Shown here: one piece after another, positions 31,142 through 37,907 of the stretch
Layout of the letters: each line of letters starts with the position of its first letter
Numbering within the stretch: the first letter of the stretch is position 1
Assembly (NCBI GenBank): GCA_963840455.1
Contig: CAWIYV010000011.1
Location: forward strand, 256,001 to 320,000
DNA: 64,000 bases
Source: Nitrospirota bacterium
GTDB taxonomy: Bacteria > Nitrospirota > UBA9217
Direction: 5' to 3'
Notes under the pieces: generated by a model
Told to the model about the DNA's origin: nothing
The model's input: the letters and a program-made list of their open reading frames with translations, nothing else
Databases searched by the model: none
Program-made: the position numbers and the translations under genes

Positions 31142-33022
31142 CTACTTGAGCTCCAGGACTACATCGTTCGCGGCCTTGAGGGCGGGATTTGACGTGAACA
31201 GGATCACCTGGGTCTTCGTACCCAGGACCCGGAGAAGATGACAGGCGGCCTGCTGCCGGGCGGGGTCCATGCCAATGAAGGGATCGTCAAGGATGAAGGG
31301 GATCCTCCGCTTGCCCGCGATGGCCTCGACCAGCCCCGCACGCAGGCAGAAGCAGACCATCTCCCGCGTGCCGTGGCTCAATGTGCCATAGGCGAGCTTC
31401 GCACCATGCTTGTCGTGAACGAGGGGCAAACCGTCAGGACCTACTTCGACCCTGACATACTTCCCTGCGCTCACCGTCAGCAGGTTCCGCTGCGCAGCGC
31501 TTTCCACGGCCGGAACCAGTGTTTCTATTTCAATGCCGCTCACGCGGCTCGCCACGGCGATCTCGGCGAGGACGTTCATGCCGGCCCCCGCAGGCTGCGT
31601 CGGCATGACCTCTCCACGCATATCCAGGCCCGAGAACTCCAGGTCCGGCGCGGCCTGAGCATGCTCCGCTTCAACCCGCTCGATCTCCTGCCGCACGCTG
31701 TAGGTGTCAACGGCATTGTGGGCGAGGGCCTTCGCCGCCTTATCAAGCACCGCGACCTCCTCCTGCTGCTTTGCCAGCTCCGCCTTCAAGTCGTCGACAT
31801 TCACGCCGCCCGTCATCAGCTGCTGCTGTTCCTTGAGGTCATGGTACATGGACTGGAAATAACGGTAGTTGTCGGCCTTCTCCTTGAGCTCCGAAGCGGA
31901 CTTTGTATCCGTGGCTTTCATGAACTTCATGATGGTCGCACCGCTGTCCTGGAACTTCTTCTCGATCTCGGCGCGCTCCTTCACGAGGCCGTCGATCTCC
32001 TTCTGGACCTCCGTGCGCTGCGAATTCTTGCGGGAACTGTTGTACCAGCCGGCGGCGATCAGCAGGAGCGCCGCGAGGACGCCGATGGGGAAGTAGATTT
32101 CCGAACCTTCGAGCGGAAACAGGCCGGACAGGAGCGCCAGGCCGCCGATGGCGACGCCGGCGAGGAAAAGCTTGTCCATCACGAGGTTCGCCTGCGGGAT
32201 TGCGTCGCGCTGCATCGTGAGCGACTCGATGTCCTGCGCCAGCTCCTCGGTCTTCACCATCTTCTCGCCCTGGTCGCGTTCGTGGGCGCTGATCAGGTCG
32301 GGAAGGTTCTCGGGAAGCGTTTCGCAGGCCTTGAGGTTCTCGATCTCCGCCGCGAGTTCCTCCATGCGCTTCCATGCGTCCGTCATGCTCTCCAGCTTCT
32401 TCGCGATCTCGCCCAGCCTGATCTTCGCGGCGTCAAGTTTGTACTCCGCGTCGGCAGCTTCCTCGGCCTTCCGCATGGTCTCGCGGAGCTCGGCGAGCCG
32501 CGCTTCGTGGCCGGACGACCTCCCGGCAGGGGGTGCAGGCCTTCCCTTGGCAGCGGGCGGGTTAGCCGGCAGGTTGTGGGTCGCCTGGCCGGAGCATGCC
32601 TCGCGCCGGAACGCGAACAGCCGTCCGTAGTCCTCCTCGGAGATGCCGGGCATGAGGCCCGCCATGAACTGGGAAGTCGTGTCCCAGTCCTTGTGCATGA
32701 GCGTGAACTCTTTCGTGCCGGGATTGTACTTGGAAAGATTGACGGCGCGTTTCGAAAAGTCCTGGATCACCCGGTAGTAGGAGCTGTCATCCGAAAAGAC
32801 CACCAGCGCGCCGCGGGAGGCGTCGGGTACGATGCGGGAGACCAGCAACTCCATCTTGCCCCGATGGTTGACCGGGTTGAGAAGGCGAATGATCGTGTCG
32901 ACGGCCGTCGTCTTGCCGGCCTCGTTGCCGGCGGCGACGAAATTGAAACCGCCCTGGAACCGCACGCGCGCCAGCTCTTGAAAGCCGCGTATTCCCTGCA
33001 ACACCAGTTCCACCAGGAACAT
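31142..33022 (-). CDS. SMC/Rad50-like split ABC ATPase (YhaN-like) with coiled coil and two TM helices
   Basis: N-terminal Walker A GNEAGKTT; coiled coils; central hydrophobic hairpin; C-terminal LSHGT signature, FILDDPF Walker B, QVILFT. Confidence 0.8.
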   Translation of the reverse strand: MFLVELVLQGIRGFQELARVRFQGGFNFVAAGNEAGKTTAVDTIIRLLNPVNHRGKMELLVSRIVPDASRGALVVFSDDSSYYRVIQDFSKRAVNLSKYNPGTKEFTLMHKDWDTTSQFMAGLMPGISEEDYGRLFAFRREACSGQATHNLPANPPAAKGRPAPPAGRSSGHEARLAELRETMRKAEEAADAEYKLDAAKIRLGEIAKKLESMTDAWKRMEELAAEIENLKACETLPENLPDLISAHERDQGEKMVKTEELAQDIESLTMQRDAIPQANLVMDKLFLAGVAIGGLALLSGLFPLEGSEIYFPIGVLAALLLIAAGWYNSSRKNSQRTEVQKEIDGLVKERAEIEKKFQDSGATIMKFMKATDTKSASELKEKADNYRYFQSMYHDLKEQQQLMTGGVNVDDLKAELAKQQEEVAVLDKAAKALAHNAVDTYSVRQEIERVEAEHAQAAPDLEFSGLDMRGEVMPTQPAGAGMNVLAEIAVASRVSGIEIETLVPAVESAAQRNLLTVSAGKYVRVEVGPDGLPLVHDKHGAKLAYGTLSHGTREMVCFCLRAGLVEAIAGKRRIPFILDDPFIGMDPARQQAACHLLRVLGTKTQVILFTSNPALKAANDVVLELK

Positions 33023-33106
33023 ATCTCGTGCTCCTTTCCTGCCGTATACTTGATTGATAACTATAGCGCAAGTGAGAAAAATGTGCAACAGGGGAAATTT
33101 GTTATA

Positions 33107-34627
33107 TCACAATTTTTCAAGTGCATTCGCCAGGGCCTCGGCTTTTTCAAGGGTCTCGGCATACTCCCGCGCCGGATCGGAGTCGGCCACGATCCCTGCG
33201 CCCGTCTGGACGTAGGCGACGCCGTCCTTGATGATGAAAGTCCTGATGATGATGTTCAGGTCCAGGTCGCCGTTGTTCGCGAGATACCCCAGTGATCCGG
33301 TGTAGAGCCCGCGCGCCACAGGCTCCAGCTCGTCGATGATCTCCATACATCGCACCTTGGGCACGCCCGTGATGGTCCCGCCCGGGAACGCGGCGCGGAT
33401 GAGGTCGAAGCCGTCCCTCCCCGGCGCCAGTTCGCCCCGCACGTTCGACACGATATGGATCACGTGGGAATAGTCCTCGACCACCATCAGCTCGTCCACG
33501 GAAACGGTCCCGTAGGCGCACACCTTGCCGAGGTCGTTCCGCTCGAGGTCCAGCAGCATGATGTGCTCGGCCCGTTCCTTTTCGTTCGTCAGGAGCTCGG
33601 CGGTGAGGTCCCGCGTCTCTGAGAAGTCCCGCCCTCGCCGCCGCGTCCCCGCAATGGGCCGGGTATCGGCGATGCGCCCCGTGAGCCGCACCAGCCTCTC
33701 CGGCGAAGAGCTGACGACCGTGAGGCCGTCGAACTCGGCGTAGGCCGCAAAGGGGGAAGGATTGATCGCGCGCAGGACCGCGTAGAGACCAAGCGGATCG
33801 AGGCCGCCGATCACCGCCGAGAACCGCTGGGACAGGTTCGCCTGGTAGATGTCGCCGGCCGCGATGTACTCCTTGCATCGCCGCACCATGGACTCGAAGC
33901 GTTGCTGCGTCAAAGAAGGCTCGAGGCGGACACGGGGGGATGCGCTCTGCTCCGGCAAGGACCGATGACCGGCACGTGCTACAAGCTTTTCGGCGGCTCC
34001 TGTCAGCCGCTCCGCCGCCTCATCGTACAATCTCCCCCACTGGTCCGGCTCGGGTTTCCGGAAGCCCATCTCCTGCTCCCGCGCCCCGGGGTTCACGATC
34101 ACCCATACCCTGCCCGCCAGGTGGTCGAAGGCGACCACCAGGTCCACGAACAGGAAGCACGCCTCGGGGGTCCCGAGGTCGTCCAGTGCCGTCCGCGGAA
34201 GCTTTTCGATCTGGTGGACGAACTCGTATGAGAAGAAGCCCACGGCCCCTCCCGTGAAGGGAGGCAGTCCCTCAACTCGCTCCGTGCGGTAGTTCGCCAT
34301 CAGTTCGCGGAGCTTCGGGAGCGGCTTACGCTTCAGAGAGGCGCGTTTGCCGTATTTGCCCTGCGGGGCTACCGTCCAATTCAGGTCCACCGTATCACCG
34401 TGTGACCGGAAGATGAGGTAGGGGTCCGCGGTCACGAAGGAGTACTGTCCCGTTCTCCCGTTGACCCGGGCGCTCTCCAGGAGCACGGGATGACCGAGCG
34501 GACGCAGGGCGTGCACGGCGGAAAGCGGCGTGACCGCAGCCACGTCAAGCTCTGCATGCAGCGGAATGATCCTGCCGTTACTTACCGCGGTCAGGAACTC
34601 TTCCCGTGATGGCGTGATCTTCTTCAT
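33107..34627 (-). CDS. Chorismate-utilising enzyme (anthranilate synthase component I / PabB family)
   Basis: LLES, GGAVGFFSYE, GDIYQANLS, SSSPE, RPIAGT, DLERNDL, PGGTITGVPK; PIAGT rather than PIKGT leans towards TrpE. Confidence 0.88.
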   Translation of the reverse strand: MKKITPSREEFLTAVSNGRIIPLHAELDVAAVTPLSAVHALRPLGHPVLLESARVNGRTGQYSFVTADPYLIFRSHGDTVDLNWTVAPQGKYGKRASLKRKPLPKLRELMANYRTERVEGLPPFTGGAVGFFSYEFVHQIEKLPRTALDDLGTPEACFLFVDLVVAFDHLAGRVWVIVNPGAREQEMGFRKPEPDQWGRLYDEAAERLTGAAEKLVARAGHRSLPEQSASPRVRLEPSLTQQRFESMVRRCKEYIAAGDIYQANLSQRFSAVIGGLDPLGLYAVLRAINPSPFAAYAEFDGLTVVSSSPERLVRLTGRIADTRPIAGTRRRGRDFSETRDLTAELLTNEKERAEHIMLLDLERNDLGKVCAYGTVSVDELMVVEDYSHVIHIVSNVRGELAPGRDGFDLIRAAFPGGTITGVPKVRCMEIIDELEPVARGLYTGSLGYLANNGDLDLNIIIRTFIIKDGVAYVQTGAGIVADSDPAREYAETLEKAEALANALEKL

Positions 34628-34761
34628 ACAATCAGCAGTTATCAACATCCTCTGCGAAGAACAGGATATCTGCCCGATAAAGTTAAAAAAGTGTAGACAC
34701 AATTCCCGGGGGGGTCAAGGAATATTTATTTAAGAATTATTCTTATGAACTTGACAGGGTG

Positions 34762-34770
34762 TGCTATACT
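34762..34770 (+). promoter_or_regulatory. Extended -10 promoter upstream of the ncRNA candidate
   Basis: TG-c-TATACT; a divergent TTGACC-17-TACACT serves the trpE/pabB gene. Confidence 0.5.
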
Positions 34771-34807
34771 ATGTTCAGGAAGAGAGCAGAGCAGAATCCC
34801 GGTCTTT

Positions 34808-35144
34808 GAAATAGACAAGTGAAAGAGGCGTTGCCGAACCAACACCCTAGCGTGTATATAGGTAACCCGTTAAAAGGGGAATAAAGCAGCGGAAGAACGG
34901 ATACCGAAGCCGGAAAGCGGACCGCAATTTGAGCGGTAAGACTGCCGGTATGGGTTCCACGGGTCCGCAAAGCCGTATTAGCTGATATCCCCGAAGCCCC
35001 GGCGTGGCGGGAGTTAAGCAGCATGCTTCACCGGTCCTGCAGGGCAGGACCATCGAAGTGGTCGTAGAGTACCCCGAGCCGCCGGGACTCAACGGAATGC
35101 AACCAATCGGTTCGGTGGCAACGCCTTTTTTATTTGTCTATTTT
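34808..35144 (+). ncRNA. Unidentified structured non-coding RNA (~340 nt)
   Basis: 28-bp closing stem 34808-34835/35117-35144 (24 WC + 4 G-U) plus at least 8 nested internal helices; no credible ORF. Confidence 0.75.
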
Positions 35145-35173
35145 CTTCTCACTGTTCCACATCCCTCATGCAT

Positions 35174-35202
35174 TTGACAGCCGCCGCTTCTCCTGCTATC
35201 AT
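35174..35202 (+). promoter_or_regulatory. sigma70 promoter of glgC
   Basis: TTGACA-17-TATCAT. Confidence 0.7.
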
Positions 35203-35247
35203 TTTTTTGTTACTTTCTGATATTCCCTATACGGCTAAGGAAGAACC

Positions 35248-36498
<1,251 letters not shown>

Positions 36499-36536: not shown

Positions 36537-37907
36537 TCACTTCGACAGCCCCAGCTTCTTCCTCAGCGTCAGCCGGTTGATGCCCAGCAGGCGCGCCGCC
36601 TCGGACTGATTCTCCCGCGCATGCGCAAGCGCGTATTCCAGGAGATGTTTGTCGACCTCGGCGTGCACCTTTTCATAAAGGTTCTTCTCCTTCCGCTGCA
36701 GCGCATCCTTCACAAAGGGGACCACCGCAGATGCAAGGGCGCCCGCGTGCCCCTGCTCCGGCCTCGTGAGGGAATGGGCGCCCAGGTCCCTGAGCTCATA
36801 GGTGGTGAGATACTCGGTCTTGCACAGTGCGATGGCGGAGCGGAGCGTATTCTCGAGCTCGCGGATGTTGCCGGGCCAGTCATAGGCAAGCAGGCCGTCG
36901 AGGAACGCCCTGGTCACGCCCTTGATCGCTTTCTGCGCCGTGTGGGCGTGCCGGTAGAACAGGCACTGCACCAGCGGGGCGATGTCCTTCTTCCGCTCCC
37001 GGAGCGGCGGGACATGGATCGACGCAACGCGCAGCCGATGGTACAGGTCCTCCCGGAACTTCCCCTCCCGCACCATGGCGGCCAGGTCCCGGTTCGTCGC
37101 CGAGATCACCCGGACGTTCACCTGCACCTCCTTCGTGCTCCCCACGGGATAGAAGGACTGCGTTTGCAGGAACCGGAGGAGCTTCCCCTGGAGCGGCAGC
37201 GGCAGTTCCCCCACCTCGTCGAAGAACACGCATCCGTTGTCGGCGGTCCTGAGCATGCCCTCCTTCGACGCCACGGCGCCGGTAAAGGCGCCGCGCTCGT
37301 AGCCGAAGAGCTCGGATTCGAGCAGCGCCTCGGGCACGGCCGCAGAGTTGATCACCACGAAGGGCTTGCCGAACCGGGACGACAGCTGGGCGATGGCCTC
37401 GGCCACCAGTTCCTTCCCGGTTCCCGTCTCTCCGGTGACCAGCACGGGCACCTCCACCTGGGCGATGCGCGCCACCTTCTCGCAGAGGCTCATGATCAGC
37501 GTCGAACGGCCGACGATGACACATGTTGCCGCAGGCGCGATGAGGTCCTTATCGATCAGGACCACATGCGCCATTTCCGCCCGCAGGTCATTGAGCTCGG
37601 TCAGGACCCGATCGATCCGCTCCTTGTGGAGCGGGCGCCGCATGATCTCGTAAGCCCCGAAGGTCGCGGCCTCCATGACCGGCCCGGTCCGCTCCTGCTC
37701 CGTAAGCGCGATGACAAAGGTCTTTCCAGCATATTCCCGTACCTGCTCTGCTCCGGCGGTATCGATGTCGACGAACACGAACGGTCCGCCACCCTCCGCC
37801 GCTGCCGGCCCGGGCTTGGCAATGACGACCTTGTAGCCCTTTGGAAGCAGCTGCGGGAACTCCCTGGCGAGAATGTGGTCCGACGTTACGAGCAGCATGG
37901 TCTGCAT
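36537..37907 (-). CDS. sigma54-dependent enhancer-binding protein with a degenerate receiver domain
   Basis: GETGTGKE, ESELFGYERGAFTGA, FREDLYHRL, WPGNIREL, Fis-type HTH; the N-terminus lacks the acidic DD pair. Confidence 0.92.
   Translation of the reverse strand: MQTMLLVTSDHILAREFPQLLPKGYKVVIAKPGPAAAEGGGPFVFVDIDTAGAEQVREYAGKTFVIALTEQERTGPVMEAATFGAYEIMRRPLHKERIDRVLTELNDLRAEMAHVVLIDKDLIAPAATCVIVGRSTLIMSLCEKVARIAQVEVPVLVTGETGTGKELVAEAIAQLSSRFGKPFVVINSAAVPEALLESELFGYERGAFTGAVASKEGMLRTADNGCVFFDEVGELPLPLQGKLLRFLQTQSFYPVGSTKEVQVNVRVISATNRDLAAMVREGKFREDLYHRLRVASIHVPPLRERKKDIAPLVQCLFYRHAHTAQKAIKGVTRAFLDGLLAYDWPGNIRELENTLRSAIALCKTEYLTTYELRDLGAHSLTRPEQGHAGALASAVVPFVKDALQRKEKNLYEKVHAEVDKHLLEYALAHARENQSEAARLLGINRLTLRKKLGLSK

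Follow-up and report, generated by a model that had tools for sequence, protein, structure and literature searches.

What is encoded in the 620-base spacer between two divergent genes of an uncultured Nitrospirota bacterium of the lineage UBA9217? The spacer, which lies between trpE on the minus strand and a glgC-like gene on the plus strand, is part of a stretch of 64,000 nucleotides (nt) of contig CAWIYV010000011.1, referred to here as the window, and hosts an element that had been proposed, from a sequence-only reading, to be an undescribed, large, stand-alone noncoding RNA (ncRNA). The analysis bears this proposal out in that the element has no Rfam match, is not dispersed, shows clear covariation, and is represented by RNA-library contigs with discrete ends. 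The features of a structured ncRNA gene in general, namely covariation, a promoter of its own (in 53 of 55 homologs), the lack of a coding frame, and library contigs with discrete ends, are all found, and we conclude with high confidence that the element is a real and previously undescribed ncRNA family. Although the RNA class is new, it belongs to a familiar kind, that of stable bacterial ncRNAs encoded on their own between a dedicated promoter and a dedicated terminator.

Consensus Structure of the RNA

The plus strand of the element has a minimum-free-energy fold of −153.1 kcal/mol (z = −4.5), closed by a 28-base pair (bp) helix, and none of 100 shuffled sequences was as stable. The minus strand folds about equally well (z = −4.9), so that folding energy alone cannot decide the strand; it is the G-U pairs, the upstream promoter, and the downstream U-tract that place the RNA on the plus strand. 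Across the homologs, the G-U frequencies in the closing helix P1 are AU 38 to GU 15 and UA 50 to UG 14.

A consensus structure was calculated with RNAalifold from 64 non-redundant sequences and then projected onto an independent MAFFT alignment for pair counts. It comprises 79 pairs in 15 helices. Standard pairs fill 86.9% of the cells as compared with 33–47% when the 3′ partners are slid by 1–3 columns. Covariation, by which the sequence-only reading had proposed that its claim be judged, is evident: 57 pairs changed on both sides as compared with 35.7 ± 2.9 in 500 shuffles, and 278 cells changed on both sides as compared with 101.5 ± 8.0, with no shuffle reaching the observed value in either count. 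Because related sequences can exceed shuffled ones without sharing a structure, the slid controls are the stronger argument.

In the overall architecture, P1 and P2 close a junction with hairpin P3 and helix P4, and P4 closes two inner domains, A and B. The parts of the structure, in window coordinates, are as follows.

34823–35131, plus strand: mature structured RNA of ~309 nt, from the covariance-model match (34825–35131), adapter-bearing ends, and joints; the ends are approximate and strain-variable
34825–34835, plus strand: 5′ strand of P1 (helix 1, 96% paired) with the sequence-invariant core GGCGUUGCC; pairs with 35117–35127
35117–35127, plus strand: 3′ strand of P1, GGCAACGCCUU, from the consensus pair counts
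34808–34824, plus strand: genus-specific extension of P1; pairs with 35128–35144, partly outside the mature ends
34836–34840, plus strand: 5′ strand of P2 (helix 2), GAACC; pairs with 35109–35113 (GGUUC), with both-side changes in 4 of 5 pairs
34843–34854, plus strand: hairpin P3 (CACC...CGUG), consensus helix 3
34867–34871, plus strand: 5′ strand of P4 (helix 4), CCGUU; pairs with 35091–35095 (AACGG) and closes the two inner domains
34876–34992, plus strand: domain A, with stacked P5 (GGGG/CCCC), P6 (AGC/GCU), and P7 (GCGG/CCGU); helices 5–10
34995–35089, plus strand: domain B, with P10 (34995–35002 / 35081–35089) and P11 (35010–35013 / 35069–35073); helices 11–15
35025–35059, plus strand: hairpin arm of domain B, GCUUC...GAAGU around GGUCCUGC/GCAGGACC

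The arm of domain A at 34908–34950 ends in a conserved loop, CAAkUUGAG. The internal loops of this domain are A-rich, and its helix 10 has both-side changes in 13 of 15 pairs. Unpaired purines are conserved in the junctions and internal loops, and the peripheral hairpins are variable. P1 behaves differently from the rest of the structure. Five of its 11 pairs never vary in the 64 sequences, and GGCGUUG / GCA.CG.C is invariant in all of them, including paralogs, whereas the remaining helices covary freely. This invariance suggests that the closed end of the RNA is recognized in a sequence-specific manner.

The 28-bp pairing of 34808–34835 with 35117–35144 that had been noticed in the sequence is present in the window, and all four of its deviations are G-U on the plus strand. 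As a feature of the family, only the inner ~11 bp (34825–34835 / 35117–35127) are conserved, and the rest is genus-specific: all six sequences of the window's genus retain the extension and show compensatory changes in it, and outside this genus the region is only an A/G-rich leader opposite a U-rich trailer. The smaller helices proposed inside it fared variously. GAACC/GGTTC coincides with consensus helix 2 by identity of coordinates rather than by a numeric count, and CCGTT/AACGG (5 of 5 pairs), GGGGA/TCCCC (4 of 5), ACCGC/GCGGT (5 of 5), and GGTCCTGC/GCAGGACC (7 of 8) recur in the family consensus. CCCGGCG/CGCCGGG is the same helix as P10, but just 2 of its 7 pairs map via the alignment. 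Three others have no pair in the consensus, their places being taken by covarying helices: CAGC/GCTG (0 of 4) by AGC/GCU, ACGG/CCGT (0 of 4) by GCGG/CCGU, and ATACCG/CGGTAT (0 of 6) by GCCGG/CCGGU. The crossing 7-bp pairing GCGGACC/GGTCCGC, suggested as a pseudoknot or switch, does not hold up, as its columns are paired in 31–61% of the 64 sequences, like the slid controls.

A scan of all column pairs for additional covarying helices gave scattered pairs only, mostly clade signal, and no further helix. A pairing of the conserved loop GUUGAG with CUCAAC was rejected, since such a helix would share positions with P10 and P4, contains mismatches in several members, and is missing from the type-2 copies. 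These results bear on a possible role as a ribozyme or as an RNA-only assembly (OLE/ROOL/GOLLD/raiA type), in which the junction core would be catalytic or self-assembling without a dedicated protein. Its size, helix number, conserved unpaired purines, and variable peripheral hairpins would suit such a role, as would the lack of a conserved protein neighbor and the very many RNA-library contigs. However, neither a conserved pseudoknot nor a long-range tertiary pairing was detected in the 64-sequence alignment, it would be unusual for a catalytic RNA to have several divergent paralogs in one genome, and there is no homology to OLE, ROOL, GOLLD, or raiA, so that we regard this explanation as unlikely.

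Relationship to Known RNAs and Occurrence

The comparison with Rfam that the sequence-only reading had called for gave no match on the element at either stringency. Rfam 15 at gathering thresholds found nothing in the whole 64-kb window, and the sole match obtained with permissive filters (E ≤ 10) on 34650–35250 was Ysr209 (21.5 bits), at 35183–35221 on the other strand, which lies outside the element and is attributed to chance. Nothing was matched inside the element in eight divergent homolog loci or in five paralog loci, and the Rfam models of OLE, ROOL, GOLLD, and raiA do not match the element. The genome from which the window comes has its RNase P RNA (RF00010) at C11:742801–743169 (279.9 bits), its 6S RNA (RF00013) at C7:28855–29031 (86.5 bits), its transfer-messenger RNA (tmRNA, RF00023) at C11:703275–703624 (200 bits), and its signal recognition particle (SRP) RNA (RF00169) at C10:448447–448545 (74.3 bits); the element is none of these. 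No published account of such an RNA was found by full-text literature searching. The main texts of two genome surveys from the Breaker laboratory (PMC11109978 and PMC8632094) do not contain "Nitrospir," "trpE," or "Thermodesulfovibrio."

The distribution was determined in samples of genomes, and the covariance-model searches were confined to the phylum Nitrospirota. BLASTN found one copy in the window's genome; homologs turned up in 21 of the 24 same-family genomes but in none of 16 genomes from ten other families of the phylum. A covariance model (R1) from 50 non-redundant sequences matches all 27 family genomes searched, with E values of 1e-51 to 1e-90, and none of 123 genomes of 21 other Nitrospirota families; a second model (R2), which adds paralogs and has a 68-pair structure, separates the two groups identically at E ≤ 0.01. 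The RNA was also detected in each of five additional family genomes, among them one that BLAST had missed and that had not been part of the earlier model searches; taken together, the covariance models recover it from all 33 genomes examined of a single Nitrospirota family. A pattern made from the two conserved ends retrieved 49 stretches among 185,579 species, each represented by one genome. The titles of 46 of these are Nitrospirota, Nitrospirae, Nitrospiria, or Nitrospiraceae, one "UBA9217"; the other three, titled Chloroflexota, Alphaproteobacteria, and Pseudomonadota, do not align in their interior and match by chance only. Among the genomes searched, the RNA family is confined to one uncultured Nitrospirota family.

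The element had also to be weighed as a miniature inverted-repeat transposable element (MITE) or other mobile inverted repeat, which would be expected in dispersed copies. The single BLAST copy in the genome, the fixed position beside trpE (51 of 53 loci), and the lack of any match to the element in viral contigs show that it is not a MITE; target-site duplications were not sought separately.

Promoter, Leader, and 3′ End

Four features flank the structured part of the RNA.

34762–34770, plus strand: extended −10 promoter TGCTATACT; TGNTA[TC]ANT in 53 of 55 type-1 homologs, 43–92 nt before the element
34777–34822, plus strand: putative purine-rich 5′ leader of the primary transcript, with a start near 34777 deduced from the −10 box and a presumed removal
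34803–34811, plus strand: conserved leader box TCTTTGAAA, the TCTTT part of which (34803–34807) is nearly invariant
35126–35131, plus strand: U-tract directly after P1; conserved CCTTTTTT in type-1 homologs, with 3′ joints at 35129–35131

The extended −10 promoter had been recognized as a candidate in the single sequence, and its conservation in nearly all of the homologs confirms it. In 53 of 55 homologs, the TCTTT box is at most 45 nt upstream of P1, the commonest spacing being 23 nt. A leader hairpin, in which 5′ purines pair with UCUUU, is predicted in 41 of 54 leaders as compared with 58% of shuffled ones, a modest excess given without a significance test. In about half of the genera (judged by eye; for example, loci L009, L013, L008, and L012), although not in the genus of the window, the word (G)GUUC(R) is found 4–6 nt ahead of P1. 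Since this word has the sequence of the P2 3′ strand, an alternative hairpin formed with GAACC is conceivable.

At the other end, GGCAACGCC followed by TTTTTT has the form of an intrinsic terminator and is conserved in type-1 homologs. The putative terminator stem is unusual in that its 5′ arm lies ~280 nt upstream. From this arrangement, we infer that transcription terminates at P1 and the U-tract.

Ends of the RNA in Environmental Libraries

A word index located the element stretch in 20 runs, which come from 14 studies; six of the runs are RNA libraries. Contigs of four RNA runs from four studies were compared with window positions 34300–35700; they cover 34817–35145, and some pieces have 0 differences from the window. 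Adapter letters are present directly before 34823 (library X16) and directly after 35125 (X18), and also behind 35134 (+4) and 35131 (+8), after 4 and 8 strain-specific letters (X16 and X18). These adapter-bearing positions mark discrete ends of molecules, which fall at the foot of P1 and within the U-tract or immediately behind it. Depth in the four runs was 0 in the leader bin (34770–34816), 0–72 in the flanking genes, and 10^2 to 7 × 10^5 in the element, values that are not to be counted as absence or as an expression level.

Other contigs join the two ends head to tail. In X13, one joint links 35130 to 34820 with four letters between them (depth 278.5) and another links 35131 to 34822 (depth 69.4); in X15, 35129 is linked to 34826, also with four letters between them (depth 189). 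Since these 3′-to-5′ joints skip the leader, the leader is gone in the molecules concerned. The joints may reflect circular RNA, template switching by reverse transcriptase, or ligase side reactions. According to the first of these explanations, once the leader is removed, the closing helix would hold the two ends for ligation by RtcB or another RNA ligase, and the RNA would mature to a covalent circle, or to some other head-to-tail form, that exonucleases cannot attack. The joints come from libraries of two studies, X13 has no listed adapter-type ends at the termini, the ends of the RNA are base-paired neighbors in P1, and the genome of the window encodes RtcB (558 bits). On the other hand, X16 and X18 show linear adapter-bearing ends (34823, 35125, and 35131–35138) and no joint, and template switching on a very abundant RNA or ligase steps in library making would yield the same joints. 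RtcB, moreover, needs a 3′-phosphate end, which transcription termination does not provide, and the evidence consists of contigs rather than reads. We therefore consider a circular mature form improbable; it would be compatible with any of the functions proposed below.

Neighboring Genes

The genes on either side of the RNA, and the putative promoter element between trpE and the RNA, are the following.

33107–34627, minus strand: trpE, anthranilate synthase component I (Pfam Chorismate_bind, 1.9e-88; Anth_synt_I_N, 2.7e-32), transcribed away from the RNA
34713–34718, minus strand: putative −35 element (TTGACC) of the divergent trpE promoter, within the conserved motif GGTCAAGAyAAtTyT
35248–36498, plus strand: glgC-like nucleotidyl transferase (assigned with Pfam), outside the element

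A divergent trpE is located upstream in 51 of 53 non-redundant loci, with mostly 132–198 nt, and up to 828 nt in two loci, between its start codon and the closing helix. The motif GGTCAAGAyAAtTyT (34700–34730 in the window) is situated between the trpE gene and the promoter of the RNA; it is found again ahead of most homologs and reads as the −35 region of trpE on the minus strand, so that the promoters of trpE and of the RNA would stand back to back. This arrangement raises the possibility of a tie to tryptophan biosynthesis, in which the RNA would act in trans on trp expression, either as a sensor of tRNA-Trp, tryptophan, anthranilate, or chorismate or by sharing its regulation with the trp operon by way of the common back-to-back promoter region. 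The conservation of trpE, contrasted with a downstream gene that is not conserved, and of the motif with the putative trpE −35 beside the RNA promoter would agree with this. The RNA is, however, on the opposite strand and outside the trpE mRNA, and duplex predictions, a crude method, gave no common pairing site with the 5′ region of trpE. In addition, the paralogs are not adjacent to trp genes and no known Trp or T-box RNA model matches the RNA. Other stable RNAs also show conserved synteny without a functional link, and we view a role in tryptophan biosynthesis as doubtful.

A riboswitch or other cis-regulatory leader, and with it the antitermination leader that had been left as an option by the earlier reading, was rejected on the other side of the element. 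The downstream gene is not coherent (glgC follows the RNA in only 9 of 53 non-redundant loci), the U-tract comes after the closing helix, and glgC has, as had been proposed, a promoter of its own, which is near consensus (TTGACA–17 nt–TATCAT at 35174–35202). The element is thus not a glgC leader. Open reading frames (ORFs) of 57–86 residues overlap the element in the window, but no coding frame is conserved across the homologs, as each of the six frames is limited to 20–29 open codons or fewer in some homolog, and the lengths of the homologs are spread over all classes modulo 3. We rate as very improbable the view that the locus lacks an RNA gene and represents instead a small protein gene, a cis-acting regulatory leader of glgC, or an inverted repeat or mobile element (MITE) at the level of DNA. 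That the window has a long inverted repeat at the ends of the element, that ORFs overlap the element, and that glgC comes next downstream might suggest one or another of these, but such points are outweighed by the single BLAST copy with fixed synteny and 0 viral-contig matches, the G-U pairs and compensatory changes, the scarcity of glgC behind the element and its separate promoter, the lack of a conserved open frame, and the RNA-library contigs with discrete ends.

Beyond these neighbors, a sigma-54-dependent transcriptional activator (Sigma54_activat, 2.6e-65; HTH_8) is encoded at 36537–37907 on the minus strand, convergent with glgC. Overlapping long frames on opposite strands are present at 31142–33295, one at 31238–33295 (plus strand, 685 residues, without a Pfam hit) and the other at 31142–33088 (minus strand, 648 residues); one or the other would be the gene downstream of trpE.

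Paralogous Copies

R1 and R2 also match lower-scoring full-length copies, which are divergent paralogs in some genomes of the family. The paralog in the window's genome, at G000:C11:825438–825744 (L111:2039–2345), scores 53.7 bits with R1 and was among the sequences on which R2 was trained. It has TTGACA and TGGTATACT, with a −10 box that ends 5 nt before the closing helix, and has a separate hairpin terminator but no leader box. Strict filters find paralogs in at least seven further family genomes; with laxer filters, there are up to five full-length copies per genome, some of them in tandem, and six matches in all in genome G006. Locus L014 (G006:C90) has copies at 438–747, 833–1148, and 1314–1634 in a row, and tandem or multiple copies also occur in G010:C12, G016, and G007:C67. 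The paralog loci share no conserved flanking protein, and in the window's genome the paralog locus gave no informative Pfam hits. Paralogs with different promoters would allow control of dosage or condition-specific control.

Discussion

The explanation that best accounts for these observations taken together is an independent gene for a stable RNA of ~310 nt and of a new family, with the biogenesis outlined here and a function in protein binding or as a scaffold; as a whole we hold it tentatively, as somewhat short of probable. Transcription would start ~45 nt upstream of the mature 5′ end, near 34777. The leader with its UCUUUGAAA box would be cut off near 34820–34823 by an endonuclease, candidates for which are RNases P, E, and III. 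In the genus of the window, RNase III would find a fitting substrate in the long helix, with a 2-nt 3′ overhang resulting if the ends are at 34823 and 35131. The long-range closing helix GGCGUUGCC/GGCAACGCC together with the U-tract would end the transcript, and both ends would stay base-paired, shielding the RNA from exonucleases, a protection that would explain its abundance.

By a logic like that of 6S RNA, CsrB, and Y RNAs, the RNA would then bind proteins or serve as a scaffold, with candidate binding surfaces in the closing helix, which is invariant, and in the purine-rich core of the junction, which is conserved. This role, taken by itself, is a possibility that we favor cautiously because of the invariant helix, the conserved purine-rich internal loops, and the several differently promoted paralogs. 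A number of points weigh against it and against the pathway as a whole. No partner protein was found; the paralog loci have no conserved neighbor, and beside the main copy only trpE, which encodes an enzyme, is conserved. The genome of the window has no Ro/TROVE gene. A conserved multi-junction core would be just as compatible with a ribozyme, with a sensor of ligands, or with an assembly made of RNA alone. Both the start of transcription and its end at the U-tract are predictions, and the processing enzymes named are candidates. The RNA evidence consists of assembled contigs of environmental libraries, which give neither level nor strand, and DNA can occur in such libraries. Finally, the covariation controls leave some phylogenetic signal.

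Among known systems, OLE, ROOL, GOLLD, and the raiA motif RNA are similar to the present RNA in being stand-alone, multi-helix, and lineage-restricted, with a function that is not or poorly known, and also in their conserved unpaired nucleotides, covariation support, and prominence in RNA data. GOLLD, ROOL, and OLE are described as forming homo-oligomers (PMC12286853). The Nitrospirota RNA differs from the members of this group in that it matches none of their models, is smaller (~310 nt), belongs to a different phylum, and has a closing helix that doubles as a putative terminator stem. It resembles the protein-sequestering RNAs 6S and CsrB-RsmY in being, to all appearance, an abundant and stable RNA with a strong promoter of its own, as well as in its ends paired in a closing stem, its paralogs, and its conserved synteny with an unrelated gene, as 6S RNA has a conserved synteny with ygfA. 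Its fold is branched, however, in contrast to the long helix with a central bubble of 6S RNA, and a true 6S RNA is found elsewhere in the genome; it also lacks the array of GGA hairpins of CsrB-RsmY.

With bacterial Y RNAs, it shares 5′ and 3′ ends that form a conserved helix, a possible protein-binding site, as well as several paralogs and an RtcB gene in the genome, but it is about three times larger and matches no Y RNA model. TROVE/Ro (PF05731) has 0 matches in the genome of the window, which is 100% complete, and this lack of a Ro/TROVE protein excludes a Y-RNA system. Precursors of 4.5S/SRP RNA likewise give stable RNAs with paired ends, whose 5′ end is formed at the foot of the helix by removal of a leader, a step that is also presumed here; in Escherichia coli, the 5′ leader of p4.5S RNA is removed by RNase P. 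The SRP RNA of the genome is, in contrast, encoded elsewhere, and the leader of the present RNA has a conserved UCUUU box for which we know of no counterpart. Chlorobi-1, Bacteroidales-1, and Acido-1 are lineage-specific motifs in Rfam that resemble small RNAs and are mostly much smaller and simpler. The RNA is like them in being present in one bacterial lineage with a promoter and a terminator, but it is larger and more complex, and they give no match to the element.

A more far-reaching possibility is that this chromosomally encoded RNA has a maturation pathway of its own, in which the leader with its conserved UCUUU box is cut off, transcription is terminated by the long-range helix, and the paired ends are ligated to a circle, giving a very abundant, lineage-defining ribonucleoprotein or RNA-only particle. 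We think this quite unlikely; if true, the RNA would be a new kind of "housekeeping" RNA beyond RNase P, SRP, tmRNA, and 6S.

Large, intricate bacterial RNAs of unknown function are rare, and earlier cases have opened new biochemistry. The present RNA is notable for its very many contigs in environmental RNA libraries, its paralogs, its leader box, the use of the closing helix as a putative terminator stem, and a possible head-to-tail joining. The alignment of 64 sequences and the supported secondary structure model make it a well-delimited target for studies of structure, partners, and ligands. It is found in every examined genome of a widespread uncultured Nitrospirota lineage of wetland, soil, sediment, and groundwater, for which it is a specific marker in metatranscriptomes.

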